Origin: an uncultured Gemmatimonadales bacterium
GTDB taxonomy: Bacteria > Gemmatimonadota > Gemmatimonadetes > Longimicrobiales > RSA9
NCBI GenBank assembly: GCA_963741945.1
Contig: CAVUKA010000002.1
Location: forward strand, 111,730-175,729
DNA length: 64,000 bases
Direction: 5' to 3'
In this document: positions 20,655-33,943 of the stretch, in pieces
Position numbering within the stretch: position 1 is the stretch's first letter
Layout of the letters: each line of letters opens with the position of its first letter
The notes under the pieces: model-generated
Databases searched by the model: none
The model's input: only the letters and a program-made list of their open reading frames with translations
What the model was told of the DNA's origin: nothing
Program-made: the position numbers and the translations under genes

Positions 20655-22511
20655 TCAGGGAACGCTGATGCTCTGCACCGTCGAGCACACGTCGGTGCCG
20701 CCGGCGTTGCACACCTGGTAGCTGGCCGTCCCCGTCCAGTTCTTCCCCAGCTTGTCCGAGTACGACCCGCTGTTGGACGTGGTGACGTACAGCGTCAGGT
20801 TGCTGGTGTTCAGGCCACGATAGATGTCCACGCTCGCCGCGCTCGAGCCGCTCCACGTCAGGTCAGCGAAGACGTTCGGGCCGTGCGAGGACGTGGAGAC
20901 AGACAGCGTGATCACGTCGCCGGACCCGCCGCCGGAGGTGACGGTCACGGCGTGGCTGACGGTGTCCGGCAGATTGCCGCCGTCCGTGACGGTGAGCGTT
21001 ACGGTGTACGTGCCGCCCGCGCTGAAGGTGTGGGACGGGGTCTGCGCCGTGGACGTGCTGTTGTCGCCGAAGTCCCAGCTCCACGCCACGATCGAGCCAT
21101 CATCCGTGCTCTGGTCCGTGAACTGGCAGGTCAGATCCGCGCAGCTCCAGGTGAACCCGGCCGTGGGCGGCTGGTTCGTGGTTCCGCCGCCATTTCCCGG
21201 GTCATTCGCCGGATCGAGCGTCGTGTTCATCACGGCCCGATACGTGTTGACGCGTCCGTTGCCGAAGTTCGTGTCATACCCGCTGGCGCCGAGGTCGTCG
21301 GCGGTTCCCAGGATGTGGGAGAGAAGCGACGACCCCGTGAGCCCGGTCTTCGACGCCACCACCGCCGCCGTCCCGGTCACCTGCGGCGCGGCCATGGACG
21401 TGCCCTGCAGGTAGGCGTAGCCGCCACCCATGTACGCGCTGTAGATCCCGCCGTCCTCGCTGGTGTTCGAGTACATCTCGCCGCCCGGCGCCGAGATGTC
21501 GAGCCCGGCACCCCAGTTCGAATAGTAGGAGAGCGCGTCCTGCCAGTTCGTGGCCGCCACGGAGATGGCCTTCGGATCGCACGCCGGGCAGGAGACCGTC
21601 CCGGTCCCGTCGTTCCCCGCGGACGCGATCACGAGCGCGTTCTTGCCTGTGGCGTACGCGATCGCCTCCTTCTCCGCCTGCGACTCGCTGGCGCCGCCCA
21701 GGCTCATGTTCATGGCCACCACGCCGTAGTCGGCGGCCGCGCGGATCGCGTTCACGATGGCGGTGGTCGGGCACCCCTGGGCGCCGCACACCCGCTGCAC
21801 GAACACCTTCACGTGCGGCCCCGCGCCGGAGACGCCCGCCACGCCCACGGTCCGGCCGACCATGGTGCCCGTGGTGTGCGTCCCGTGGCCGTCCTCGTCC
21901 GAGGGATCGTTGTCGCCGGAGTACCAGTCCTGGCCCTTGATCAGCTGTCCGGACAGGAACTCCGTGTGGTTGAAGTCGACGCCGGTGTCGATGCTCCCGA
22001 TGACGACGTCGCTCCCGCCACTGCCATAGTTCTCGATGTTGTCCTCGTCCGCGTCTGCCACCGACTCGTACCCGGACACCGGTTTGCCGTTGTTCCTGCC
22101 GCGGGTGTAGTAGAGCTGGAGCCCGCCCGGGTTGTAGAACGCCCAGAGGCGCGGATCGATGGTCGTGGTCTGGCGCAGGTAGTTCGGCTCCGCGTAGACG
22201 ACGCGGGCGTCCTGAGCCACGGCCCGGGCATTGGCATGCTCGGCACCCATGGCCCCCCGGAAGATCCTGAAGGCATCGTGATACCCGGCACGGCCCAGCT
22301 GGAGGCCGTGGGCGGCCGCCACAACGGCGGGATCCGCCCCGTCCTTCAGCTTCACGATCACCTCGCCGCCCACCACGCGGTCGCGACCGCTCTGCACGGA
22401 CGCCTGCGGGGCTACGGAGGCGAGGGGCGCCTGTGGTGCGGTCTGCGGCTGGGTGAGATCCTGACACGCTGCCGCACCGAGAGCGAGCAGCAGGACGAGT
22501 GAGCGACGCAT
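20655..22511 (-). CDS. S8 subtilisin-like serine protease lipoprotein with C-terminal PKD domain
   Basis: LGAAAC lipobox; SIDTGVD, HGTHTTG, GTSMAAP triad; WSWDFGD..PSHTF..GTYTVTLTVTD PKD motif. Confidence 0.93.
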   Translation of the reverse strand: MRRSLVLLLALGAAACQDLTQPQTAPQAPLASVAPQASVQSGRDRVVGGEVIVKLKDGADPAVVAAAHGLQLGRAGYHDAFRIFRGAMGAEHANARAVAQDARVVYAEPNYLRQTTTIDPRLWAFYNPGGLQLYYTRGRNNGKPVSGYESVADADEDNIENYGSGGSDVVIGSIDTGVDFNHTEFLSGQLIKGQDWYSGDNDPSDEDGHGTHTTGTMVGRTVGVAGVSGAGPHVKVFVQRVCGAQGCPTTAIVNAIRAAADYGVVAMNMSLGGASESQAEKEAIAYATGKNALVIASAGNDGTGTVSCPACDPKAISVAATNWQDALSYYSNWGAGLDISAPGGEMYSNTSEDGGIYSAYMGGGYAYLQGTSMAAPQVTGTAAVVASKTGLTGSSLLSHILGTADDLGASGYDTNFGNGRVNTYRAVMNTTLDPANDPGNGGGTTNQPPTAGFTWSCADLTCQFTDQSTDDGSIVAWSWDFGDNSTSTAQTPSHTFSAGGTYTVTLTVTDGGNLPDTVSHAVTVTSGGGSGDVITLSVSTSSHGPNVFADLTWSGSSAASVDIYRGLNTSNLTLYVTTSNSGSYSDKLGKNWTGTASYQVCNAGGTDVCSTVQSISVP

Positions 22512-22627
22512 CGGCGCACTCCTTGGTTGAGGGCTTCTTTTCTGCCGGCGGGTCGGGCGCGGCCATGGTGGCGAGCGCCCGCGGAGAGTCACCGGACCAC
22601 AGTGTCCGGAATTACGGCAGGCTCTCA

Positions 22628-22656
22628 AGGGTAAGAAGGACGGCGCCGCACATCAA
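22628..22656 (-). promoter_or_regulatory. Candidate sigma-70 promoter of the S8 protease gene
   Basis: TTGATG-N17-TACCCT on the minus strand. Confidence 0.45.
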
Positions 22657-22773
22657 GGATGTCTGACGACGGGGGCGATGGGGGATCACGGCCCGCCGCG
22701 CTTGACGGTGAACGCGGGAAGCGTGAGGTTTTGCGGGTTCCTTCCCCGGCCCCCTCCCCCTGCCCGGACGCAC

Positions 22774-24882
22774 ATGAAAACACGCCGCGCGCTCCCCGTG
22801 GCGACCTTCGGGTTCGCCCTCGTTCTCCTTTCATCCCCGGCCGTGTCGCAGCAGCTGCCCGGCTACACCCCGGCCGGCTCGGACCGGGAGCGGGCGCTCG
22901 AGACGGACGTCGTCGCGCGGCCGGATACCGCCGACGCGCGCACCCACTCCCGTGCGCTGAGCCGGGAGCCGCACGTGGCGGGAACGCCGGCGCAGGCCCG
23001 CACGCGCGACTACGTGATCAGCCGGATGAAGTCGTGGGGGCTGCGCACGTCCGTGCGCAGCTACAGCGTCTTCCTCCCGCACGCCACCGGCGTCCGGGCC
23101 TGGCGCGTGCGCCCCGACTCGCAGGAGCTGTCGCTCGCGGAGCCGGCCATCCCCGGCGACCCGGCGAGCGCCAGGCCCCAGTACCCGACGGTGAACGGGA
23201 GCAGCGCGGCGGGCGACGTGACCGCGCCGGTGGTCTACGTGAACTACGGTCTCATCGAGGACTACGCGCGGCTGGACTCCCTCGGCGTTTCGGTGGACGG
23301 GAAGATCGCGGTGGCGCGCTACGGCCGCTCCTTCCGGGGCATCAAGGCGCGGGAAGCGGAGAAGCATGGTGCCGCCGCGCTGTTCATCTACAGCGATCCC
23401 GCGGACGACGGCTACGCGCTTGGCGACGTCTACCCGGACGGTCCGATGCGGCCGTCGTTCGGCGTGCAGCGCGGGAGCGTCATGAACGTGGAGGGCGACC
23501 CGACCACGCCGGGCTATCCGAGCACCGCCGGCGCCGCGCGCGTGGACCCGACCCCGGTGGTGCCGCACATCCCCGTGGTGCCGGTCTCGTACGGCAACGC
23601 CGCGGAACTGCTCGAGGGACTGCGCGGCACCGACATCCCGCAGGACTGGCAGGGGGGACTCCCGTTCCGCTATCACGTCGGCCCCGGCCCGGTGGTGGCG
23701 CGGGTGCAGGTGACCACGGACGAGGACACGAAGCCGTACAAGGACATCTGGGACACGTTCGGGATCGTGCGCGGCAGCGAGTTCCCGGATGAGGTCGTGG
23801 TGGTCGGCGGCCACCGCGACGCGTGGGGGCCCGGCAGCGATGACAACGTGAGCGGCTCGGTCACCGTCCTGGAGATTGCCCGCGCGGTGGCGGAGCAGCT
23901 GAAGGAGGGGAAGCGGCCGAAGCGGACGCTGGTCTTCGCCACGTGGGACGCGGAGGAATGGGGGCTGGTGGGCTCCGTCGAGTACGTCGAGGAGGACTCG
24001 CTCCGGCTGCAGAAGGGGGGCGTCGCCTACCTCAACCAGGACATGATCGCTTCGGGTCCGCGCTTCCACGCCGGGGGCTCGCCATCGCTGCGGGCGGTGC
24101 TGCGCTCCGCGGCGCAGCGGGTGCCGGCCCCCGACTCCGCGGGGAGCCTGTGGGACGCCTGGCGCGCCGGGGCGAGCGTTGGCCCCGCGGAGATCCCGGA
24201 CATGGGCGACCCGGGCGGCGGCTCCGACTACGCCGGCTTCTACAACCACCTCGGAATCCCCATCCTCGACTGGGGCTTCGGCGGCCCGCAGGGGATCTAC
24301 CACTCGGCGTACGACGACACCGGATGGATGGAGCGCTTCGGCGACCCGGGATACCGCAACCACGTGGCCGCGGCCCGGCTCGGCGCCGCCATCGCGCTGC
24401 GCATCGCCAACGCCGACGTCCTCCCGTACGACTACGCCGAGTTCGCCACGACCATGCGCGGCTATCTGCCCGCGCTGGACAGCGCCTTCGCGAAGAGGGG
24501 GTGGGACCCGGACAGCGACACGCTCTCCGCCGCCATCGACCGGATGGAGTCGGCCGCCCGCGCGTTCGCGGCGGCCCGGGACTCGGTGCTGGCCGGGTCG
24601 TCGCCGGCGGCGAAGGTGCTCGAGCGGACCAACGCCGCGCTCCTGCGCGTCGAGCGCGCGCTCACTCGACCCGCCGGGCTGGTGGGCCGGCCCTGGCAGC
24701 GCAACCTCATCTACGTGGCCGACCTCGACAACGGTTACTCGAACATGGTGTTCCCGTCCGTCAACGAGGCGGTGCGGGCGAGCGACGAGGGGCGCGCGAA
24801 GCGGGAGATCGCGGACCTCTCGGCCCGCTTCGACCGGGCCACGACGGCGCTGAAGGACGCGCGGGCAGCGCTCATGCGGTGA
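22774..24882 (+). CDS. M28 family metallopeptidase (glutamate carboxypeptidase II-like; PA and TfR dimerisation domains)
   Basis: Signal peptide; PHVAGT, YVNYG, RGIK, VQRGSV, GGHRDAW, DNVSG, WDAEEWGL, GGGSD, YHSAYD. Confidence 0.92.
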   Translation: MKTRRALPVATFGFALVLLSSPAVSQQLPGYTPAGSDRERALETDVVARPDTADARTHSRALSREPHVAGTPAQARTRDYVISRMKSWGLRTSVRSYSVFLPHATGVRAWRVRPDSQELSLAEPAIPGDPASARPQYPTVNGSSAAGDVTAPVVYVNYGLIEDYARLDSLGVSVDGKIAVARYGRSFRGIKAREAEKHGAAALFIYSDPADDGYALGDVYPDGPMRPSFGVQRGSVMNVEGDPTTPGYPSTAGAARVDPTPVVPHIPVVPVSYGNAAELLEGLRGTDIPQDWQGGLPFRYHVGPGPVVARVQVTTDEDTKPYKDIWDTFGIVRGSEFPDEVVVVGGHRDAWGPGSDDNVSGSVTVLEIARAVAEQLKEGKRPKRTLVFATWDAEEWGLVGSVEYVEEDSLRLQKGGVAYLNQDMIASGPRFHAGGSPSLRAVLRSAAQRVPAPDSAGSLWDAWRAGASVGPAEIPDMGDPGGGSDYAGFYNHLGIPILDWGFGGPQGIYHSAYDDTGWMERFGDPGYRNHVAAARLGAAIALRIANADVLPYDYAEFATTMRGYLPALDSAFAKRGWDPDSDTLSAAIDRMESAARAFAAARDSVLAGSSPAAKVLERTNAALLRVERALTRPAGLVGRPWQRNLIYVADLDNGYSNMVFPSVNEAVRASDEGRAKREIADLSARFDRATTALKDARAALMR

Positions 24883-24920
24883 ACATCGCCGTGGCCGCGG
24901 CGCCGGCCGCAGGCTGACGC

Positions 24921-25289
24921 TCAGCCGCTCTGCATCTCCCGCACGATCCGGATCAGCTCCCGCTCCCGGGCGTGCGCGCACGGGAGATCGCACATCCCCA
25001 TGTCGTCCAGCGACCTGCAGTGCCCCGGGCACTGCTCCGTCCCCCGCAGCGAAGGCAGGCCGTCCGTATCCATCTCCGGCAGGAGGTGGCGGAGGCGGGC
25101 CGTACGAATCGAGACGGTGCTGCCGCAGCGGTGCTCGAACACGAGGAGATTGGCCTCGGGCACGGGCGCGTAGCCCTGGAACCCGAGCAGACGCACGTCC
25201 ACGTCGGTCACGAACGCCTCCCAGCTCGGCCACCGGGCGTGGCACGACCCGCAGCGGGCGAAATCCTGGTCCGTGGCAATGGCGCTCAT
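24921..25289 (-). CDS. Small cysteine-rich hypothetical protein (probably metal-binding)
   Basis: CGSC...W, FEHRCGST, CPGHC, CDLPC; TAGCTT box 5 nt before the ATG. Confidence 0.75.
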   Translation of the reverse strand: MSAIATDQDFARCGSCHARWPSWEAFVTDVDVRLLGFQGYAPVPEANLLVFEHRCGSTVSIRTARLRHLLPEMDTDGLPSLRGTEQCPGHCRSLDDMGMCDLPCAHARERELIRIVREMQSG

Positions 25290-25371
25290 GCCGGAAGCTA
25301 ACCCGCCGGCGGCGGCGAGGAAGTGGGGGCGGCAGCTCACCCCCGAACCCTCGATGCCCTCACTCAGCCCC

Positions 25372-25462
25372 CTCCGCGCGAAGCGCCGTTCCTCCGCGCT
25401 CTTCGCGCCTTCGCGTGAGACGCAGTTCCTTCGCGCCCTCCGCCGCCTTCGCGCCCTCCGCC
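25372..25462. repeat. Short 8-9-nt tandem repeats (CTYCGCGCC-like)
   Basis: About 8 copies of ctccgcg/cttcgcg-like units, including cttcgcgccttcgcgtgaga, directly after the iadA stop. Confidence 0.6.
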
Positions 25463-26641
25463 TCATTCGAACGTGCCGACCACCCTCGCCTCCCCCTCCT
25501 CCACGAACACGCGTCCGCGCGCGATGACCCACGACGGCTTGAGCCCGGAATCCAGGAGCACGAGGTCCGCGTCGGCGCCGACCGCGACCCGCCCCTTCCC
25601 GGTCAGACGCAGCAGCCGCGCGGGCGTGGCGGTGACGGGGAGGAGCGCCGTCTCCATCGGCAGCCCTTCCTCACGGACCGTGTCCCGCACTTCGCTCCAG
25701 AGCGACTCCGGCCGGCCGGAAGTGAGCGACACCAGCTCCCCCCGGGCATCGAACTGGGGGAGCGAGCCGCCGGCATCGGACGTGAACGTGATGTGATCCA
25801 GCGGGACGCCGGCGTCCAGGAGCTCGCGGAGCGCCCGGGACGGCTTCACCTCCTCGTCGGGGAACGCCGGCCACGCGGACGTGGTGATGTCCAGGGTGGC
25901 CTCTCGGCCGTAGGACCTGGCCGCTTCGAACACCGCGCGGCTCCGGTTCGCGTGCGTGGGGTGGAACTGGCGGTACGTGAGCTCGCTGGTGGCCACGGCG
26001 TCGCGGATCAGGCGGAACGGGTCCTCGGCGTCGCCCATGTGGAGGTGGACCAGGCCGCACTTCCCGCCGAGCATCCCGCCGAGGCGCACCGCCTTGGCCA
26101 GCACCACCAGGTCGTGGACGGTGGGGCTGGACGAGCGGTGGTCGGCGATGGCGATCTCCCCCGCCCCGATCACTTCCTCGATGAGCGCCAGGTCGCGCGT
26201 GATGTCGCCGGTTATGGTGGGCGTGGGGATGCGGTAGGCACCAGTCCAGATCCACGCGGAGATCCCTTCCGCCCGGAGCGCCTTCGCCCGCATCAGCACG
26301 CTCTCCACGTTGCGCGTGGCGCCGTCCGTCCCCAGCAGCCCGACGACGGTCGTCGTCCCGCCGGCCACGAGCCACGACAGCGGCACTTCCGGCGTTCGCG
26401 TGGCCGGGCCGCCCTCGCCGCCTGCCCCGGCAATGTGGACGTGGCCGTCGATCAGGCCCGGGATGACGGTGCGACCGCCCGCGTCCACTTCCCGGGCCCC
26501 GAGCGACGCCGGGATCGTCAGCTCCGGGGCCACCGCCACGATGCGGCCGCCCGCGCAGAGGATGTCGCGGCGCCCGAGCGGTTCCGGGGCGTAGACCTCC
26601 GCGTCACGGACGAGGAGCGGAGCGGGCGTGTGGCTGGTCAT
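25463..26641 (-). CDS. iadA: Isoaspartyl dipeptidase (beta-aspartyl peptidase, M38)
   Basis: PGLIDGHVHIAGAGGEGGPATRTPE, GTDGATR, GEIAIADHRSS, HLHMGD, PTHANR, TSDAGGSLP. Confidence 0.95.
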   Translation of the reverse strand: MTSHTPAPLLVRDAEVYAPEPLGRRDILCAGGRIVAVAPELTIPASLGAREVDAGGRTVIPGLIDGHVHIAGAGGEGGPATRTPEVPLSWLVAGGTTTVVGLLGTDGATRNVESVLMRAKALRAEGISAWIWTGAYRIPTPTITGDITRDLALIEEVIGAGEIAIADHRSSSPTVHDLVVLAKAVRLGGMLGGKCGLVHLHMGDAEDPFRLIRDAVATSELTYRQFHPTHANRSRAVFEAARSYGREATLDITTSAWPAFPDEEVKPSRALRELLDAGVPLDHITFTSDAGGSLPQFDARGELVSLTSGRPESLWSEVRDTVREEGLPMETALLPVTATPARLLRLTGKGRVAVGADADLVLLDSGLKPSWVIARGRVFVEEGEARVVGTFE

Positions 26642-26719
26642 GGGCGGACCTCGATGGAGTCGGTGGCGGCCGTCGCCGGCAGCGGTCGGTGCGTGAAGCG
26701 CATCGTGAGGTGCGGTGTC

Positions 26720-28246
26720 TCAGTGGTACCCGATGGCCACCGCGAACACCACGAACGCGGAAGCGGCGATGACCAGGGCGAGCAGGAACTTCCAGATGAA
26801 GCGGGCCCAGATCGCCCATTCGACCCGGGCCACGCCGAGCGTTCCGATGAGAGCGCCCGACGTGGGCACGATGATGTTGGTGAACCCATCGCCGAGCTGG
26901 AATGCGAGGACGGCCACCTGGCGGGTGACGCCGGCGAGGTCGGCGAGCGGGGCCATGAGCGGCATGGTGAGGGCCGCCTGCCCGGACCCGGAGACCACGA
27001 AGAAGTTGAAGATGGACTGGAACACCAGCATGAGCCACGCGGACGCGGCGGCCGGAAGGGTGGCGATCACGCTCGCTTCGTGCAGGAGCGTGTTGAGCAC
27101 GGACGGGACGGTGGGCGCATCGCCGCCCAGGACGAGGACGATCCCCTTGGCCATGCCCACGATGAGCGCCGCGTCCAGGATGTCGCGGGCACCCGTCCGG
27201 AATGCCCGGCCGATGTCGTTGACGCGCATGCCGTTGAGCCGGAAGAGCGCGCCGATGATCCCGGCCGCCACGCCCATGACGAAGAACTGAGTGGCGATTT
27301 CGGGGATGTAGTACTGCCGGGCGACCACGCCCCAGACCACCCAGACCACGGTGGCGAGGACGGTCAGGAGCACGAGCTTGTGCCCGAACGTGAACGCCGG
27401 ATCGAGCGCCCGCGCCTCCTCCACCTCCTTCGCCAGCGGGTTCGGGATGCCGAAGAGCGGCGAGCGCTCGGGCGTCTGGCGGACCCGCTGGGCGTACCAC
27501 CACGTCCAGCCGGTCCCGAAGAGGGTGAAGAACGCCCACATGGCCATGCGGAACGGCGCACCGGACATCACGGGCACTTCCGCCACGCCCTGGGCGATGG
27601 CCACGCTGAACGGGTTCATCCACGACGTGGCGAACCCGATCTGCGTGGCGACGTAGGTGATGAGCACCCCCACGATGGCGTCGTAGCCGAGGGCGAGGAC
27701 GAGCGGCACCAGGATCATGGCGAACGCGATCGCTTCCTCGCCCATCCCGAAGACGGCGCCGCCCACCGAGAAGAGCACGAACATCACGGGAACGATGAGC
27801 GCTTCCGCGCCGGCCGTCCTCTTGATGACCGCCAGGATGCCGGCCTCGATGGCGCCCGTCCGCAGCACGATCCCGAACGCGCCACCGATGACCAGGATGA
27901 AGGCGACGACGCCGATGGCCGCCCCGAACTTGTTCCCGGAGACCAGCCCTTCGAACGCGTAATTGAAAACGCCGACGCCCCCGCCCGGGGCGAAGGCCGG
28001 CACACCGCGCCGCACCGGCTCGCCCGCGGCGTTGCGCAGCAGCTCGAAGCTGCCGGGCACCAGCACCTCCCGCTCCTGGGCCGCGCCGGCCGCGTCGATG
28101 AAGTGGACGGTGGTGGTCTCGAACGATCCCGCCGGCACCACGTACGTCAGCAGCGCCGCGAACAGGATGACGAAGAAGATGATGACGTACGTGTCCGGCG
28201 CCTGGAACCGCGGCCGCCCCGGCTCCCGCGCCGCCGCTGCTGTCAT
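26720..28246 (-). CDS. yfcC: YfcC family putative basic amino acid/dipeptide antiporter
   Basis: PDTYVIIFFV, GMGEEAIAF, TQIGFATSWMNPF, SGSGQAALTMP, AFQLGDG; ~12 TMs. Confidence 0.9.
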   Translation of the reverse strand: MTAAAAREPGRPRFQAPDTYVIIFFVILFAALLTYVVPAGSFETTTVHFIDAAGAAQEREVLVPGSFELLRNAAGEPVRRGVPAFAPGGGVGVFNYAFEGLVSGNKFGAAIGVVAFILVIGGAFGIVLRTGAIEAGILAVIKRTAGAEALIVPVMFVLFSVGGAVFGMGEEAIAFAMILVPLVLALGYDAIVGVLITYVATQIGFATSWMNPFSVAIAQGVAEVPVMSGAPFRMAMWAFFTLFGTGWTWWYAQRVRQTPERSPLFGIPNPLAKEVEEARALDPAFTFGHKLVLLTVLATVVWVVWGVVARQYYIPEIATQFFVMGVAAGIIGALFRLNGMRVNDIGRAFRTGARDILDAALIVGMAKGIVLVLGGDAPTVPSVLNTLLHEASVIATLPAAASAWLMLVFQSIFNFFVVSGSGQAALTMPLMAPLADLAGVTRQVAVLAFQLGDGFTNIIVPTSGALIGTLGVARVEWAIWARFIWKFLLALVIAASAFVVFAVAIGYH

Positions 28247-28250
28247 GGCG

Positions 28251-29150
28251 CTACTCCTCGATCACGCGCCGGCGCGCGAGGTCGTAGCGCTGGCCGCTCC
28301 CGAGCAGGTGGAGCTTCAGCCCGTGGCCGACCAGGTCGCCGTCGTCGTCCACCCCGATGCCCGTGGCTTCCGACGCGTCGATCACCATGACGGTGTTGTC
28401 CCCGAAAACCTCGAACTCGGCCGGGCCGGACGTGATGACGGCGGTGGCCTCGTCGATCCCCACGCCCACCAGCTCCGGGTGCTCCAGCACCAGGGAGATC
28501 AGGCGGTTCTCCCGCTGGCGCGCGATGAAGTGCTGGTCGATGATCGCGCGCGTGACGAAGCCGAAGCCCGGGGCCGTGACGACGTTGCCCCGCTCGATGG
28601 TCGTGAACGGGTACTCCGCGTCCGGGTGCAGCGCCTCGTCGCCCGTGACCATGATCTCGCTCATCACCGCGGCGCCGGCGCTCGTGCCCGCCAGCACACC
28701 GCCCTTCCGGTAGATCTCCCGCGCACGGTCCAGGACGCGCGTGCCGAGCATGTGGCGGGTGAGCCGGTTCTGGTCGCCCCCGGAGAAGAAGATACCGGTG
28801 GCCCCGTCCAGCGCGGCCACGGTGGCGTCATCATTGGCCGTGACGCTGTCGAACTGGACGAAGCTCACGGCCGGGCAGCCCGCGTCCCGGAGCTGCTGGC
28901 TCTGGTACTCCGCCACGTCCACCGGCTCCGCGCTCGCCATGGGGATCACCACCATGCGGCAGGCGTCGCCGCCCGCCAGCTCCACGATCTTCTCCATGAG
29001 GTAGGCGGGGCGGTCGCCGCCGCCGATGATCACCAGGTGGCCGGGACCCGCTGGCGGGGTGAAGCCGGCCGCTGGCGGGGTGAAGCCGGCCAGCAGGAAG
29101 GCGCCGAGCAGAAGGGCTGCCGGGCGCGCGCGCGCGACGTGACGATGCAT
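28251..29150 (-). CDS. cphB: Cyanophycinase (S51) with predicted signal peptide
   Basis: HLVIIGGG, IPMAS, IFFSGGDQNRL, GTSAGAA, IDQHFIARQRENRL, GIDEAT; N-terminal MHRHVARARPAALLLGAFLLAG. Confidence 0.88.
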   Translation of the reverse strand: MHRHVARARPAALLLGAFLLAGFTPPAAGFTPPAGPGHLVIIGGGDRPAYLMEKIVELAGGDACRMVVIPMASAEPVDVAEYQSQQLRDAGCPAVSFVQFDSVTANDDATVAALDGATGIFFSGGDQNRLTRHMLGTRVLDRAREIYRKGGVLAGTSAGAAVMSEIMVTGDEALHPDAEYPFTTIERGNVVTAPGFGFVTRAIIDQHFIARQRENRLISLVLEHPELVGVGIDEATAVITSGPAEFEVFGDNTVMVIDASEATGIGVDDDGDLVGHGLKLHLLGSGQRYDLARRRVIEE

Positions 29151-29304
29151 GGCTCCGTATCCGTTCGTTGATGTCCCGGCCGGGGGCCCGGCGGGCTGCG
29201 CGCCCGCGGACCGTCCACCAGGTCGATTTGCCGCACCCGCCCGGGAGCGGGACGGCCCGGTCAGACCGCAGTCTACGCGGTGGAGCGCGCGCACGCACGC
29301 ACGA

Positions 29305-30690
29305 CTACGCCGGCCGCACGTTGTGGTTGCTCCGGAAGAAGTTCTCCGGATCCCACTTCGCCTTGATCCGCGCGAGGCGGTCGTGGTTCTTCCCATACGC
29401 CGCCCGCGCGCCGTCCTCCTCGTCGCCGCCCAGCAGATTCACGTACGTCCCCCCGGTGGCGTGGGGAGCCAGGTCGGCATGGAAGCCCCGCGCCCAGTCC
29501 ATCAGCGCGGCGTCGTGGGCCGCCTCGGACCAGCCGGGGAAGATGTGGAGGGCGTACTCCGCGCGGCGGTGCGGGAACGCCGTGGCTTCCGGGTCGACGC
29601 GGCCGATGGCGCCGCCCTCGCGCTCGAAGTAGACCATGGTGAACGGGCCGGGGAGGTCTTCGGTGCCGGCGAGGGTAAGGTCGATGGCGTCGTCGGAAAG
29701 CGCATCGAGGTAGTGGGCCTTCGAGTACCAGCGCAGCCCCTCCGGCGTGCCGGCGTCGAACGCGCGCTGCACGTCGACGTACGGCTGCGGCGCCACGAGC
29801 TCCAGGATGGGGGTGCCGAAGTCGCGCAGCGGCTTCATCTCGGCCTCTCCTTCGGCGATCACGCCCGCGTAGCAGAAGACCAGGAAGAGCGCCACGCGGC
29901 CGCGGTGCTCCTCCGGGAACGGCTCCACCGGCGGCACGCGGATGAGGAAGGCGTAGACCTGCAGCGAGTCGGGGGCGTCCGCCATGAAGTCGCGGTAGAA
30001 GCGAAGCACCCGGCCGGCGTCCTCGAAGGGGTGGACGATCTGGCCCGCCAGCACTTCGGGGCCGACCTCGTGGAGCCGGAAGTCCAGCGACGTCACCACG
30101 CCGAAGTTCCCGCTCCCGCCGCGCAGCGCCCAGAAGAGGTCCGGGTTCTCGGTGGCGGACGCGCGGACGATGCGGGCGTCGGCTGTCACCACATCGGCAC
30201 CCGTCAGGTTGTCCAGCGCCAGCCCGTGCTTGCGCGCCAGGTACCCGGTGCCGCCGCCGAGCGTGTAGCCGGGCACGCCCACGGTGGAGACGGTCCCGCC
30301 GGTGGTGGCCAGTCCGTGCGCCTGGGTCGCGGCATCGAACGCGCCCCAGCGCGCGCCCGGTCCGACGCTCGCCGCCCGCTCCCCGGCATCGACATCGACG
30401 CCGCCCATGGCCGAAAGGTCGATCAGCAGTCCATCATCGATGCTGGAGTTGCCGGCGTAGCTGTGGCCCCCGCTCCGCACTGCCACCCGGATGCCGTGCT
30501 CGCGGGCGGCCCGGATCGCCGTGACGACGTCGCCGGCGGCCGCGCACCGGGCAATGGCTCCGGGGCGGCGGTCGAAGCGGCCGTTCCACCCCCGGCGCGC
30601 CGCGTCGTAGCCGGCGTCGCCCGGCGCAATGAGGCCACCGCTGAGGTCGGTGCGGAGGGATTGGAGCAGTGCGGTCGGAAGCTGGGTCAT
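29305..30690 (-). CDS. FAD-binding oxidoreductase (VAO/BBE family)
   Basis: VRSGGHSY covalent-FAD motif, TLGGGTG, WALRGGSGNFGVVT, YVN, KAKWDPENFF. Confidence 0.92.
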   Translation of the reverse strand: MTQLPTALLQSLRTDLSGGLIAPGDAGYDAARRGWNGRFDRRPGAIARCAAAGDVVTAIRAAREHGIRVAVRSGGHSYAGNSSIDDGLLIDLSAMGGVDVDAGERAASVGPGARWGAFDAATQAHGLATTGGTVSTVGVPGYTLGGGTGYLARKHGLALDNLTGADVVTADARIVRASATENPDLFWALRGGSGNFGVVTSLDFRLHEVGPEVLAGQIVHPFEDAGRVLRFYRDFMADAPDSLQVYAFLIRVPPVEPFPEEHRGRVALFLVFCYAGVIAEGEAEMKPLRDFGTPILELVAPQPYVDVQRAFDAGTPEGLRWYSKAHYLDALSDDAIDLTLAGTEDLPGPFTMVYFEREGGAIGRVDPEATAFPHRRAEYALHIFPGWSEAAHDAALMDWARGFHADLAPHATGGTYVNLLGGDEEDGARAAYGKNHDRLARIKAKWDPENFFRSNHNVRPA

Positions 30691-30811
30691 GATGGGTCCA
30701 GTGGGAGAGGGAGCGAGAATAGGGTATCGCCGGCGAGGGACGGGCGCGCCCCCGTGATCCGGGGAGGCGCCCGCCCATCGATTGTGCCGGCCGAGGGCCC
30801 GGCGTGTCAAA

Positions 30812-31591
30812 TCAGAAGCCGCCCGGGCGCCTCACGTGCTCGTCGATCGGCAGCGCGAGGCCCTCCGCGATCGAAGCGAACCAGGTCTCCACGCCCAGCA
30901 GTGAGGCCGTGCTGGCGCCCGTGGGAAGACCGCGCTCCGTCAGCAGCGCGCCGCCCGTCCGGCCCGAGAGCTGGAAGTCCGCCAGGAGCGCGCCGTCCGC
31001 GTCGTGGAACCGGAACCGGAACGCGTACCAGCCCGCGTCCGTCACCGCGTACGCGGCACCGCCCGCCGTCACTTCCAGCCCGCCGGCGGACGGCTCCACC
31101 ACCACCTGGGCTCCGCCCGGGTAGCCCCCGGCGTCGTCGAAGAAGAGCTCCGTCAGCGTGAACGCCGTCGCCGGCGAGCCTGCCGGGTCCAGGTAGATGT
31201 CCAGCTGGTCCACGAAGCCGCTGGCCGGGAACCGGCTCCACGTGCCGGCCCCGATGGAGTACGGGCCCGTCGGCGCGAACACGCTGTAGGCGGCGACGCA
31301 GCCGCCTTCTTCCACCGTCGCGTACCCGGCGCCCGCCGACGGCGCCACCGGGCCGCCGCCCCGGGCGTGGTGGTTCACCGTTCCGCACCAGCCACCGTCG
31401 TACCCGTACCACCCCTCGGCCCCGTGATTGAAGCCCTGGTGCCATACGGGGAACGGCGCGCTGGACAGCGACGGGGCCGCTGCGGCCAGCGACCGGGTGG
31501 GCGCCGGGGCGGTGGCGCTTTCGCCACAGCCACTGGCCGCGAGCGCGGCCGCGGCCAGGGTCAGGATCAGCGTGGTGCGGTCTGTCGACAT
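30812..31591 (-). CDS. Hypothetical lipoprotein
   Basis: AAGGAG RBS; signal peptide LAASGC; beta-rich mature region. Confidence 0.7.
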   Translation of the reverse strand: MSTDRTTLILTLAAAALAASGCGESATAPAPTRSLAAAAPSLSSAPFPVWHQGFNHGAEGWYGYDGGWCGTVNHHARGGGPVAPSAGAGYATVEEGGCVAAYSVFAPTGPYSIGAGTWSRFPASGFVDQLDIYLDPAGSPATAFTLTELFFDDAGGYPGGAQVVVEPSAGGLEVTAGGAAYAVTDAGWYAFRFRFHDADGALLADFQLSGRTGGALLTERGLPTGASTASLLGVETWFASIAEGLALPIDEHVRRPGGF

Positions 31592-31679
31592 CGTTCTCTC
31601 CTTCGCTCGGGAACACGGGTACGGGTTCGTCTGTGCTCCGAAGCTGGGCGCGGTGTCTTTGCTCACCGTCATGGCATGA

Positions 31680-31694
31680 TTAGAATGCGTCTAA
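31680..31694. promoter_or_regulatory. Inverted repeat TTAGA-N5-TCTAA in a divergent promoter region
   Basis: AT-rich palindrome between the divergent lipoprotein and BTAD regulator genes. Confidence 0.35.
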
Positions 31695-31714
31695 GACTCT
31701 TCCACGGAGGTGAC

Positions 31715-33943
31715 GTGATCCGTTTCCACCTGCTGGGACCGCCCGACCTGCGCGACGCCGAGGGTCGGCCGCGGGCGATCACGGGCGCGAAGCGTCTGGC
31801 GCTGCTGGCGTACCTGGCGCTCGAGTCACGGCGGGGGCCGGTGCGGCGGGACACGCTGGTGGGGCTGCTGTGGCCGGAGTCGAGCCAGAAGCGGGCGCGC
31901 AACGCGCTCAGCAACGTGGTCTTCCACGTGCGGAAGGCGCTCGGTCCCGACGTGTTCACGGCGACGGGGACGGAGGAGCTCGGGCTGGCGGCGGAGTCGG
32001 TCTGGTGCGACGCGCTGGCGTTCGAGGCGGCGGTGGGGGAGGGGCGGCTGGGGGAGGCGCTGGACCTGTACCGGGGGGACCTGCTGGAGGGGTTCTTCGC
32101 CCCGTCCGCGGGCGCGGAGTTCGACCACTGGGTGGACGGGGAGCGTGCGCGGCTGCGTCGCCTGGCCACGGACGCGGCCCGGCGCCGGATCGAGGAGGCG
32201 GAGGGTCTGGGCGACCGGGTGGAAGCGCTCCGGATCGCGCGCTGGCTGTGCGGTCTCGCGCCGGAGGACGAGGCGGCGGCGCGTCGCCTGATGTCGCTTC
32301 TGGACAGCTCGGGGGATCGGGCGGGCGCGCTGCGGGCGTACGAGCGGCTGGCCAGTCGGCTGGAGCGCGAGCTGGGGGTGGAGCCGACCGCGGAGACGCG
32401 GGCGCTGGCGAAGCGGGTGCGGCTGCGCGACGAGGGTGCGACGGGTGCCCGCGCCGCGGCGCCGGGCCACGGAGACGCCGCGGGCGAGCCGGCCCGTCGC
32501 GAGCCGGCCGCGCCGGAGCTCCCCGTGCGGACCGTAGCGGTGCTTCCGTTCGCGAACCTGGGCGCCACGGCGGACGCGGAACCGTTCGTGGCCGGACTGC
32601 ACGACGACCTGCTGACGGAGCTGTCGCGGATCTCGGCGCTGCGGGTGATCGCGCGCACATCGGTGCTCCGGTACCGGGGGACCGACCTCCCCGTGGCGGA
32701 GATCGCGCGGGAGCTCGGGGCGGGCACGATCGTGGAGGGCGGCGTGCAGGCGGCCGGGGATCGAATCCGGGTGAACGTGCAGGTGGTGGATGGCCGCGAC
32801 TCGGCGCACCGGTGGGCGGAGCGGTTCGACCGCGAGCTGAGCGCGGAGACGATCTTCGAGATCCAGCAGGAGCTGGCCGAGCGGATCACGGGCGCGGTGC
32901 GCGCCGACCTGACCGATGCCGAGCGGAAGCGCGGGGCGGTGCCGGCGACGGAGGACCTGCAGGCGTACCGTCTCTACGTGAAGGGGCGGGGCTATCTCGA
33001 CCAGCGGACGGAGATCGGCATCCTGAAGTCCATCGCCTTCTTCGAGCGGGCGGTCGAGCTGGACGAGCGCTATGCGCTGGCCTGGTCCGGGCTCGCGGAT
33101 GCGGTGGTGCTGCTCCACGACTACGGCTTCGACGACGCCGCCCACGACCTCACCGTGGCCGAGCGCGCGGTCGGGCGAGCCCTCGAGCTCGGTCCGGAGC
33201 TGGCCGAGGCGCACGCCTCGCTCGGCATGGTCCACAGCATCCGGCGCCGCGGGACCGAGGCGCTCGCGGCGCTCGCGCGGTCGGTGGAGATCAGGCCCGG
33301 CTACGCGGACGCCCACAACTGGCTCAGCTGGCACCGCAGCGTGTTCGGCATGCCGGGGCCGGCGCTCGAGAGCGCCCGGCGGGCCGTGGAGCTCGACCCC
33401 GTGGCCCCGGAACCCGCGTCCAATCTGGCGCTGTCGCTCCTGATCAACGGCCACCTGGAGGAGTCACTCGCCGCGGCGCGGCGGACCACGGAGCTCCAGC
33501 CGGACTGGACCACGGGGAGGTTCACCGAAGGCCTCGCCCTCTACGAGCTCGGCCGGTTCGAGGAGTCCGCCGAGGTCCTGCGCGGCCTCCGCGTGGAGTG
33601 GGTCGACGACGGCCCGCGCGCCGCTTTCGCCGTGGCGTGCGCCGCCATGGGCAACGTGGTGGAAGCGCGCGCCCTGCTCGACGCGTTCGAGCGCCTCGAC
33701 GACTCCTTCTCCGCCGGCCTGGTCCGGCTCGCCCTCGGAGAGCGCGACGCCGCGTTCGACCATTTCCGGCGGATCACGCGCTGGACCTACTGGCCCACGC
33801 TGGCCATCCACCACTTCTTCCGCGCCACCCTCGCCCCCCTGCGCGCCGACCCCCTGGGCGACACGCTCAAGGCGAGGATGGCCGAGGCCTGGGGGCTCGG
33901 CCGCCCCCGCGCCGCATACCGGCCCCGCGCCGGCCACGGTTGA
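31715..33943 (+). CDS. SARP-like regulator: winged-helix, BTAD, TolB-N-like and TPR domains
   Basis: GGAGGT RBS; KRLALLAYL, RDTLVGLLWPE, LYRGDLLEG, LGVEPTAET, VAVLPFANL, VIARTSV, TPR repeats. Confidence 0.88.
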   Translation: MIRFHLLGPPDLRDAEGRPRAITGAKRLALLAYLALESRRGPVRRDTLVGLLWPESSQKRARNALSNVVFHVRKALGPDVFTATGTEELGLAAESVWCDALAFEAAVGEGRLGEALDLYRGDLLEGFFAPSAGAEFDHWVDGERARLRRLATDAARRRIEEAEGLGDRVEALRIARWLCGLAPEDEAAARRLMSLLDSSGDRAGALRAYERLASRLERELGVEPTAETRALAKRVRLRDEGATGARAAAPGHGDAAGEPARREPAAPELPVRTVAVLPFANLGATADAEPFVAGLHDDLLTELSRISALRVIARTSVLRYRGTDLPVAEIARELGAGTIVEGGVQAAGDRIRVNVQVVDGRDSAHRWAERFDRELSAETIFEIQQELAERITGAVRADLTDAERKRGAVPATEDLQAYRLYVKGRGYLDQRTEIGILKSIAFFERAVELDERYALAWSGLADAVVLLHDYGFDDAAHDLTVAERAVGRALELGPELAEAHASLGMVHSIRRRGTEALAALARSVEIRPGYADAHNWLSWHRSVFGMPGPALESARRAVELDPVAPEPASNLALSLLINGHLEESLAAARRTTELQPDWTTGRFTEGLALYELGRFEESAEVLRGLRVEWVDDGPRAAFAVACAAMGNVVEARALLDAFERLDDSFSAGLVRLALGERDAAFDHFRRITRWTYWPTLAIHHFFRATLAPLRADPLGDTLKARMAEAWGLGRPRAAYRPRAGHG

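Follow-up and report, generated by a model that had tools for sequence, protein, structure and literature searches.

A predicted cyanophycin-scavenging operon encoding a cyanophycinase, a YfcC-family carrier and an isoaspartyl dipeptidase in an uncultured Gemmatimonadota bacterium

The three genes and their products

We analysed a 64,000-nt stretch of DNA (hereafter the window; positions 111,730 to 175,729 of contig CAVUKA010000002.1, assembly GCA_963741945.1) from an uncultured Gemmatimonadales bacterium, focusing on a run of three minus-strand genes that encode, in order of transcription, a cyanophycinase of peptidase family S51 (29150 to 28251; 299 aa), a membrane carrier of the YfcC family (28246 to 26720; 508 aa), and an isoaspartyl dipeptidase, IadA (26641 to 25463; 392 aa). 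The first two genes are 4 nt apart (28247-28250) and the last two 78 nt apart (26642-26719), which bears out a first-pass annotation, made from the letters of the window, of three genes that run in one direction with these gaps. All three proteins score above the equivalog cut-offs of NCBIfam in profile searches and fall into the Pfam families Peptidase_S51, DcuC, and Amidohydro_1/3, respectively; the G+C content at third codon positions is ~0.9 in all three frames, typical of real genes in a genome of 72% G+C. The three genes form a genuine and intact-looking operon, very probably a functional one, for the scavenging of cyanophycin (beta-aspartyl dipeptides), and it probably serves to use cyanophycin made by other organisms.

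The cyanophycinase reaches 173.9 bits with the NCBIfam equivalog model TIGR02069 (cut-off 126.6), and 33 bits with the PepE profile (cut-off 156). It matches two crystallised intracellular enzymes in the PDB, 7uqv (E = 5.9e-36, aligned from residue 36) and the Synechocystis CphB structure 3en0 (E = 5.3e-33, from residue 25), with which it shares the fold family. For Synechocystis CphB, a catalytic Ser132 acting with a His and a Glu has been described, and Gln101, Asp172, Gln173, Arg178, Arg180, and Arg183 are described as critical for cyanophycinase activity (PMC3235067). The window enzyme has GTSAG at residues 155-159 and DQHFIARQRENRL at residues 205-217, and alignment to 3en0 and 7uqv shows that all nine catalytic and pocket residues are kept: Q127, S157, D205, Q206, H207, R211, R213, R216, and E234 (in order, Q101, S132, D172, Q173, H174, R178, R180, R183, and E201 of Synechocystis). 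The catalytic triad thus falls on S157 (in GTSAG), H207 (in DQHF), and E234 (in GIDE), and the substrate pocket is complete, with six of six residues (Q127, D205, Q206, R211, R213, and R216) matching the critical positions listed above. The GTSAG and DQHF..R.R..RL motifs that the first-pass annotation had picked out are in agreement with this alignment. Elsewhere in the S51 family, a clade of nine signal-bearing paralogues from Gemmatimonadales relatives (L037-L039, L041-L043, L047-L049) has Asp in place of the pocket Arg183, which hints at a different substrate for these proteins.

The start of the cyanophycinase gene is the ATG at 29150, which is conserved in a second genome of the same genus (G001) and in locus L050, from a Gemmatimonadota metagenome-assembled genome (MAG) that is the closest relative outside the genus. 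A longer open reading frame starting at 29396 was rejected: its additional 82 codons run into the 3′ end of the gene for the FAD/BBE oxidase upstream (stop at 29305) and are not conserved. From the conserved start, the protein begins with a signal-peptide-like extension of 35 residues (29046-29150, minus strand; MHRHVARARPAALLLGAFLLAGFTPPAAGFTPPAG), which the alignments to the crystallised intracellular enzymes do not cover. Its N-terminus (MHRHVARARPAALLLGAFLLAGF...) carries basic residues and then a hydrophobic core, a 12-residue stretch (ALLLGAFLLAGF) with a mean Kyte-Doolittle hydropathy of 2.43; by reading, residues 1-35 contain neither a Cys or lipobox nor a twin-arginine motif. A hydrophobic N-terminal segment is also found in all eight yfcC-linked homologues (12-aa means of 2.43-3.24, window enzyme included), four of which have a lipobox-like Cys. 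In contrast, none of the six homologues linked to iadA or to cphA (the cyanophycin synthetase gene) in cphA-bearing relatives has such a segment (means of at most 0.35), and their catalytic domain begins directly. Since the segment is present in every yfcC-linked homologue and absent from the cphA- or iadA-linked ones, export of the window enzyme, which we judged by a hydropathy heuristic and homologue comparison, is well supported, in line with the signal-peptide-like N-terminus proposed in the first-pass annotation. The same region holds a perfect 21-nt tandem duplication (29048-29091, minus strand; 2.1 copies, 100% matches) that encodes AGFTPPA twice; this duplication is also found in G001, with one substitution.

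The second protein scores 722.3 bits with NF008611 (cut-off 500), matches Pfam DcuC (PF03606; E = 7.9e-120), and has multiple hydrophobic segments, as expected of a polytopic membrane protein; we take it to be an inner-membrane carrier of the DcuC/IT superfamily and propose beta-Asp-Arg, or beta-aspartyl dipeptides, as its import substrate. In E. coli, yfcC presumably does not adjoin iadA. YfcC of E. coli and that of Clostridioides difficile belong to the same carrier family, and the C. difficile gene is described as preceded by a lysine riboswitch and as sharing its operon with the gene of an M20D amidohydrolase, a pairing with a cytoplasmic amidohydrolase that is like the one in the window (PMC11477304). 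According to this 2024 review, the family is still uncharacterised, and no substrate has been assigned to it (PMC11477304). Elsewhere in the same genome (G000:C1:857907-859280; L148 4866-6296), a distant second YfcC/DcuC paralogue, 32% identical by tblastn, is encoded beside genes for a phage-type integrase and a DUF4097 protein.

IadA, of peptidase family M38, scores 429.7 bits with TIGR01975 (beta-aspartyl-peptidase; cut-off 331.25), and its best PDB match is LmIadA of Leucothrix mucor (8dqn, E = 9.7e-96), followed by the E. coli enzyme (1onw, E = 3.6e-92), over residues 9-392. No signal peptide is predicted on this protein, because its alignment to the solved IadAs begins at residue 9-10 and leaves no N-terminal extension; it would be cytoplasmic. 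Alignment to the PDB entries shows that the metal-ligand positions are occupied (H67, H69, E162, H201, H230, and D289). E162 occupies the place that carbamylated Lys162 has in the E. coli enzyme. The residue bridging the binuclear metal centre is Glu in Type I IadAs and a carbamylated Lys in Type II (PMC5517026); because Glu162 replaces Lys162, the sequence places the window IadA in Type I. It shares this replacement with the Type I enzymes LmIadA and CpsIadA of Colwellia (PMC5517026), and looks like an ordinary member of that type.

Genome context, synteny and phylogeny of the cyanophycinase-yfcC pair

No cphA is found in the window, as the first-pass annotation had noted, and a search of the whole genome (G000; a 4.09-Mb Gemmatimonadota assembly of eight contigs, 96.7% complete) also gave no cyanophycin synthetase match over the cut-off: there are 16 weak matches (the best at 79.7 bits vs the cut-off of 850), all of them Mur-ligase/ATP-grasp parts. 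The genome has a single cyanophycinase and a single iadA. Among 41 related genomes, counting this one, cphA is found over the cut-off in seven, none of them in the same genus (G000 and G001); the tally takes in three unpublished genomes (G016, G017, and G020), on which no specific claim rests. In the three cases we inspected (G011, G039, and G040), cphA adjoins a signal-less cyanophycinase homologue.

For the survey of cphB-yfcC-iadA synteny, we collected YfcC relatives from one genome per species (293 loci) and analysed the best 80, with 49-82% identity to the window protein. These loci were picked by similarity to the query and include many kin, so the counts describe an orthologous group and not a random sample. 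The closest are from Gemmatimonadota (81-82% identity), and loci also come from Acidobacteriota, Bacillaceae, Clostridia, an Aminiphilus MAG, and several Gammaproteobacteria. iadA is present at 55 of the 80 loci: it lies directly downstream of yfcC (same strand, <300 nt) at 50 (47 when only the 68 loci whose downstream flank is 1300 nt or longer are counted), directly upstream at two, and ~2.3-2.6 kb upstream at three. An S51 gene is present at 18 of the 80. At seven loci, a close relative of the window cyanophycinase (46-83% identity) ends at most 59 nt before yfcC; at five loci of the Rheinheimera type, a distant S51 protein of ~580-610 aa is encoded 230-363 nt upstream of yfcC; and at six loci the S51 gene is 2-4.3 kb away. 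When we started from the cyanophycinase and compared 20 regions around its homologues in related genomes, the three-gene operon was found in G001 only (96%, 97%, and about 91% identity), a genome that also has no cphA over the cut-off.

Thirty-nine S51 sequences were placed in a quick maximum-likelihood tree (with SH-like approximate likelihood ratio test, SH-aLRT, as the only support measure, and with long-branch warnings on the outgroup rows). It groups the window enzyme, its G001 counterpart, and the seven directly yfcC-linked enzymes into one clade of nine (SH-aLRT 97), which covers Gemmatimonadota, Acidobacteriota, and Neomarinimicrobiota. The signal-less enzymes linked to cphA or iadA form a separate clade (SH-aLRT 93). 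The loci of the yfcC-linked clade differ in what surrounds the pair. Four of them, without iadA, have the order PepT-like M20 peptidase, cyanophycinase, yfcC, RpiR/SIS regulator, and TonB-dependent receptor (with TIGR01883, their M20 peptidases give 264.7 and 249.8 bits, below the cut-off of 274.25), and L050 has a TonB-receptor-like gene (CarboxypepD_reg and OMP_b-brl_4 domains) followed by cyanophycinase, yfcC, and iadA. What stays the same across these variants is the pairing of the exported cyanophycinase with YfcC; the fold of the cytoplasmic hydrolase varies, and a receptor in the outer membrane may or may not be added. Present in several phyla, the cyanophycinase-yfcC pair behaves like a mobile core.

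The cassette is seldom found within Gemmatimonadota: 400 other genomes sampled from the phylum gave no YfcC match at E ≤ 1e-120, and the best YfcC in 39 relatives outside the genus of the window organism is only 46% identical, whereas Bacillaceae proteins reach 61-65%; because of both results, the sequences point to horizontal acquisition of the cassette. Two of the Bacillaceae genomes with yfcC-iadA encode, elsewhere, a ~840-aa frame with two tandem cyanophycinase domains, both over the cut-off (G049:C1:3499207-3501228 and G050:C4:456815-458863).

A proposed scavenging route and its alternatives

Sequence, protein families and the order of the genes suggest the following mechanism. A Sec-type signal peptide would export the S51 cyanophycinase to the periplasm, or beyond it by a further route, where the enzyme would cut cyanophycin or soluble fragments of it into beta-Asp-Arg (and beta-Asp-Lys) dipeptides; YfcC, as its gene linkage suggests, would then carry the dipeptide across the inner membrane; and the cytoplasmic Type I IadA, given its family and conserved active site, would hydrolyse it to Asp and Arg. 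Different lineages appear to add a dipeptidase of their own (IadA or a PepT-like M20 enzyme) and often a TonB-dependent receptor, the window copy having IadA and no receptor. The organism, a soil-type bacterium, does not synthesise cyanophycin, so that other microbes must supply the polymer, which it most likely digests outside its cytoplasm. The first-pass annotation had sketched the same sequence of extracytoplasmic depolymerisation, import, and cytoplasmic cleavage, and its outline holds as far as computation reaches: the export signal, the absence of cphA, and the synteny are all favourable to it.

Ben Hania et al. reportedly described, in 2017, a "cyanophycin utilization locus" in the Bacteroidetes isolate L21-Spi-D4. 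The account of such clusters by Sharon et al. (2023; PMC10206079) describes groups of cyanophycinase, isoaspartyl dipeptidase, and transporter genes as scavenging, with credit to Ben Hania 2017, and reports that 45 of 52 RefSeq genomes that have a cyanophycinase and IaaA or IadA, and no cphA1, have these genes clustered. The locus type and the logic of scavenging are thus already published, and the window operon is like the L21-Spi-D4 locus and these cphA1-less clusters in its content of cyanophycinase, isoaspartyl dipeptidase, and transporter, its lack of cphA1, and its reading as a scavenging system. It is unlike them in its host (Gemmatimonadota), its minimal set of three genes, and the lack of an outer-membrane receptor, and perhaps in its carrier, which is specifically a YfcC. 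In the collection of open-access papers searched, we found none that names YfcC together with cyanophycinase, none that treats cyanophycinase together with a C4-dicarboxylate anaerobic carrier, and none that links YfcC to aspartyl terms in a relevant sense.

Two further comparisons concern the individual steps. The window enzyme is like CphE of Pseudomonas anguilliseptica and P. alcaligenes in being an S51 enzyme with a GxSxG Ser, a His and a Glu, and with a putative N-terminal signal of the Sec type; the CphE producer is described as a diderm that degrades external cyanophycin, with the Sec-exported cyanophycinase reaching the medium (PMC3235067). Compared by the features described there, CphE is the product of a 1260-bp gene (about 420 aa) and has Thr at the Gln173 position, whereas the window enzyme has 299 residues and Gln, like CphB (PMC3235067); it appears to be CphE-like in location and, by these features, is not a member of the CphE subfamily. 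It is unlike CphB, with which it has the nine key residues in common, in that CphB is without a signal peptide and cphA-linked, and the cphA-linked homologues of related genomes stand in their separate clade. At the import step, Pseudomonas aeruginosa is described as taking up beta-Asp-Arg by AotJQMP and cleaving it with the CphZ enzyme AotO (PMC9974463; Sharon et al., 2023). The window system would be similar in importing beta-Asp-Arg made by others and hydrolysing it in the cytoplasm without cyanophycin synthesis. P. aeruginosa does this with an ABC transporter and a CphZ zinc enzyme (PMC9974463); the window system would use the secondary carrier YfcC and IadA, and its operon encodes the depolymerase as well.

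Several observations weigh against this scavenging route, the first group at its extracytoplasmic end. The signal peptide was deduced by a hydropathy heuristic and from the homologues, and the N-terminal extension has no clear A-x-A cleavage site, so that the segment could be an uncleaved anchor. The genome has 14 matches to TonB-dependent receptors, and the organism is therefore diderm. In a diderm, a Sec signal delivers an enzyme only to the periplasm, which insoluble cyanophycin cannot reach. Relatives get past the outer membrane by means of a dedicated TonB-type receptor. The window operon encodes none, and no outer-membrane step was identified at the locus; a close orthologue of the L050 receptor was not found in the genome (the best match has 26-33% identity over the N-terminal part), nor was a GspD secretin over the cut-off (153.9 bits vs 351.35). 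With respect to cphA, none of the five cassette-bearing genomes has the gene over the cut-off, but two of the five, both fragmentary, have strong partial cphA-like matches below it (292.7 and 321 bits), so that lack of cphA does not hold as a general trait of the cassette clade. The iadA of the sister genome G001 is split into two frames by a 1-nt insertion near codon 185 (L031, G001:C6, about 12267), which could mark a pseudogene or an assembly error. Finally, three of the five Bacillaceae genomes have the YfcC-IadA pair and no cyanophycinase over the cut-off, and IadA enzymes from cyanophycin clusters are described as promiscuous, without a preference for beta-Asp-Arg or beta-Asp-Lys (PMC10206079). 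Because of these last two points, the substrate of YfcC may be beta-aspartyl dipeptides in general; the Bacillaceae without a cyanophycinase may also be feeding on dipeptides released by others.

The Bacillaceae pairs and the promiscuity of the cluster IadAs are also the core of the best-surviving alternative, a general salvage of isoaspartyl peptides, in which an exported S51 enzyme would trim beta- or alpha-aspartyl peptides of aged environmental protein, YfcC would import any isoaspartyl dipeptide, and IadA would cleave it. In keeping with it, most of the 55 iadA-positive loci among the best 80 have no S51 gene within 6 kb, and the neighbourhood of the window operon is rich in secreted-type peptidases (S8 with PKD, and M28/PA/TFR_dimer). 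We nevertheless consider general salvage unlikely, since the S51 enzyme is over the cyanophycinase equivalog cut-off and far under that of PepE (33 bits vs 156), keeps all six critical cyanophycin-pocket residues, including the counterparts of R178, R180, and R183, and belongs to a clade tied to yfcC across phyla.

A second alternative concerns the carrier only. Its NCBIfam name suggests basic-amino-acid exchange, and YfcC could export or exchange, for example, Arg, ornithine, or Lys after hydrolysis, while beta-Asp-Arg entered through generic peptide permeases encoded elsewhere, much as P. aeruginosa imports the dipeptide by an ABC arginine transporter (PMC9974463). However, yfcC is the sole transporter gene of the operon, sits between the genes of the exported depolymerase and the cytoplasmic dipeptidase, and stays constant while the fold of the hydrolase changes (IadA, PepT-like M20, and M20D in C. 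difficile), a pattern that fits a carrier feeding a cytoplasmic hydrolase and makes the exchanger role quite improbable. The turnover of the organism's own cyanophycin by an intracellular CphB would accord with the clustering of cyanophycinase and IadA described in cyanophycin producers too (PMC10206079) and with the adjacency of cyanophycinase and iadA in three cphA-bearing relatives (L040, L044, and L045), but it is hardly credible for a genome that is 96.7% complete and has no cphA, and for an enzyme that carries a hydrophobic N-terminal extension missing from the cphA-linked enzymes and lies outside their clade.

Within the scavenging interpretation, a broader proposal can be made, which we regard as evenly balanced between right and wrong: that the YfcC family, that of E. 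coli included, is a dedicated importer of beta-aspartyl dipeptides (beta-Asp-Arg/Lys), that the exported cyanophycinase and yfcC form a two-gene core moving between phyla and joined by a dipeptidase of each lineage's own and, in diderms, by a TonB receptor, and that the window copy is a receptor-less derivative gained horizontally. If true, the cyanophycinase-yfcC system would resemble a polysaccharide-utilisation locus, for a polyamide. Fixed nitrogen is widely stored as cyanophycin, and its consumers after lysis of the producer are part of nitrogen cycling; the locus places a Gemmatimonadota lineage among the likely consumers. As the concept of scavenging clusters is already in print, the gain is in corroboration and a wider host range, and the main value lies in the comparative support for a testable substrate of YfcC, a broadly distributed family.

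The upstream leader and the surroundings of the operon

The intergenic region between the stop of the FAD/BBE oxidase gene and the start of the cyanophycinase gene (29151-29304, minus strand) is the presumed promoter and leader of the operon. It is near-identical in G001 and partly kept in L050, including an invariant CAGCCCGCCGGGC. A consensus scan of 24700-29600 found no sigma-70-like promoter and no intrinsic terminator, and there was no Rfam match at E ≤ 1 in 24800-29500. A riboswitch or attenuator in the leader was considered and dropped, because the fold energy of the 165-nt leader is no better than that of shuffled sequences (z = 0.07).

On the other side of the operon, an 18-nt tandem repeat (about two copies, 90-100% matches) lies at 25428-25469, directly after the iadA stop codon, with an 8-nt repeat close by at 25391-25415. 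Further downstream on the same strand, a Cys-rich open reading frame of 122 aa (24921-25289, minus strand) has no Pfam or NCBIfam match. The flanking peptidases are a subtilase (S8) with a PKD domain (20655-22628, minus strand) and an M28 peptidase that carries a PA domain and a dimerisation domain like that of the transferrin receptor (22678-24882, plus strand).

Directly upstream of the operon, the FAD/BBE oxidase (29305-30810, minus strand) resembles the bagremycin/ferroverdin oxygenases BagK/FevA1, with 251 bits, far under the 800-bit cut-off, and a BTAD/TPR regulator is encoded at 31004-33943 (plus strand). G001 (L031 8980-9200, compared with 29151-29330 of the window) retains the entire leader together with the final ~25 nt of the FAD/BBE oxidase gene, but its upstream gene encodes an RCC1-repeat protein, and the two species differ in the arrangement of the operon flanks.

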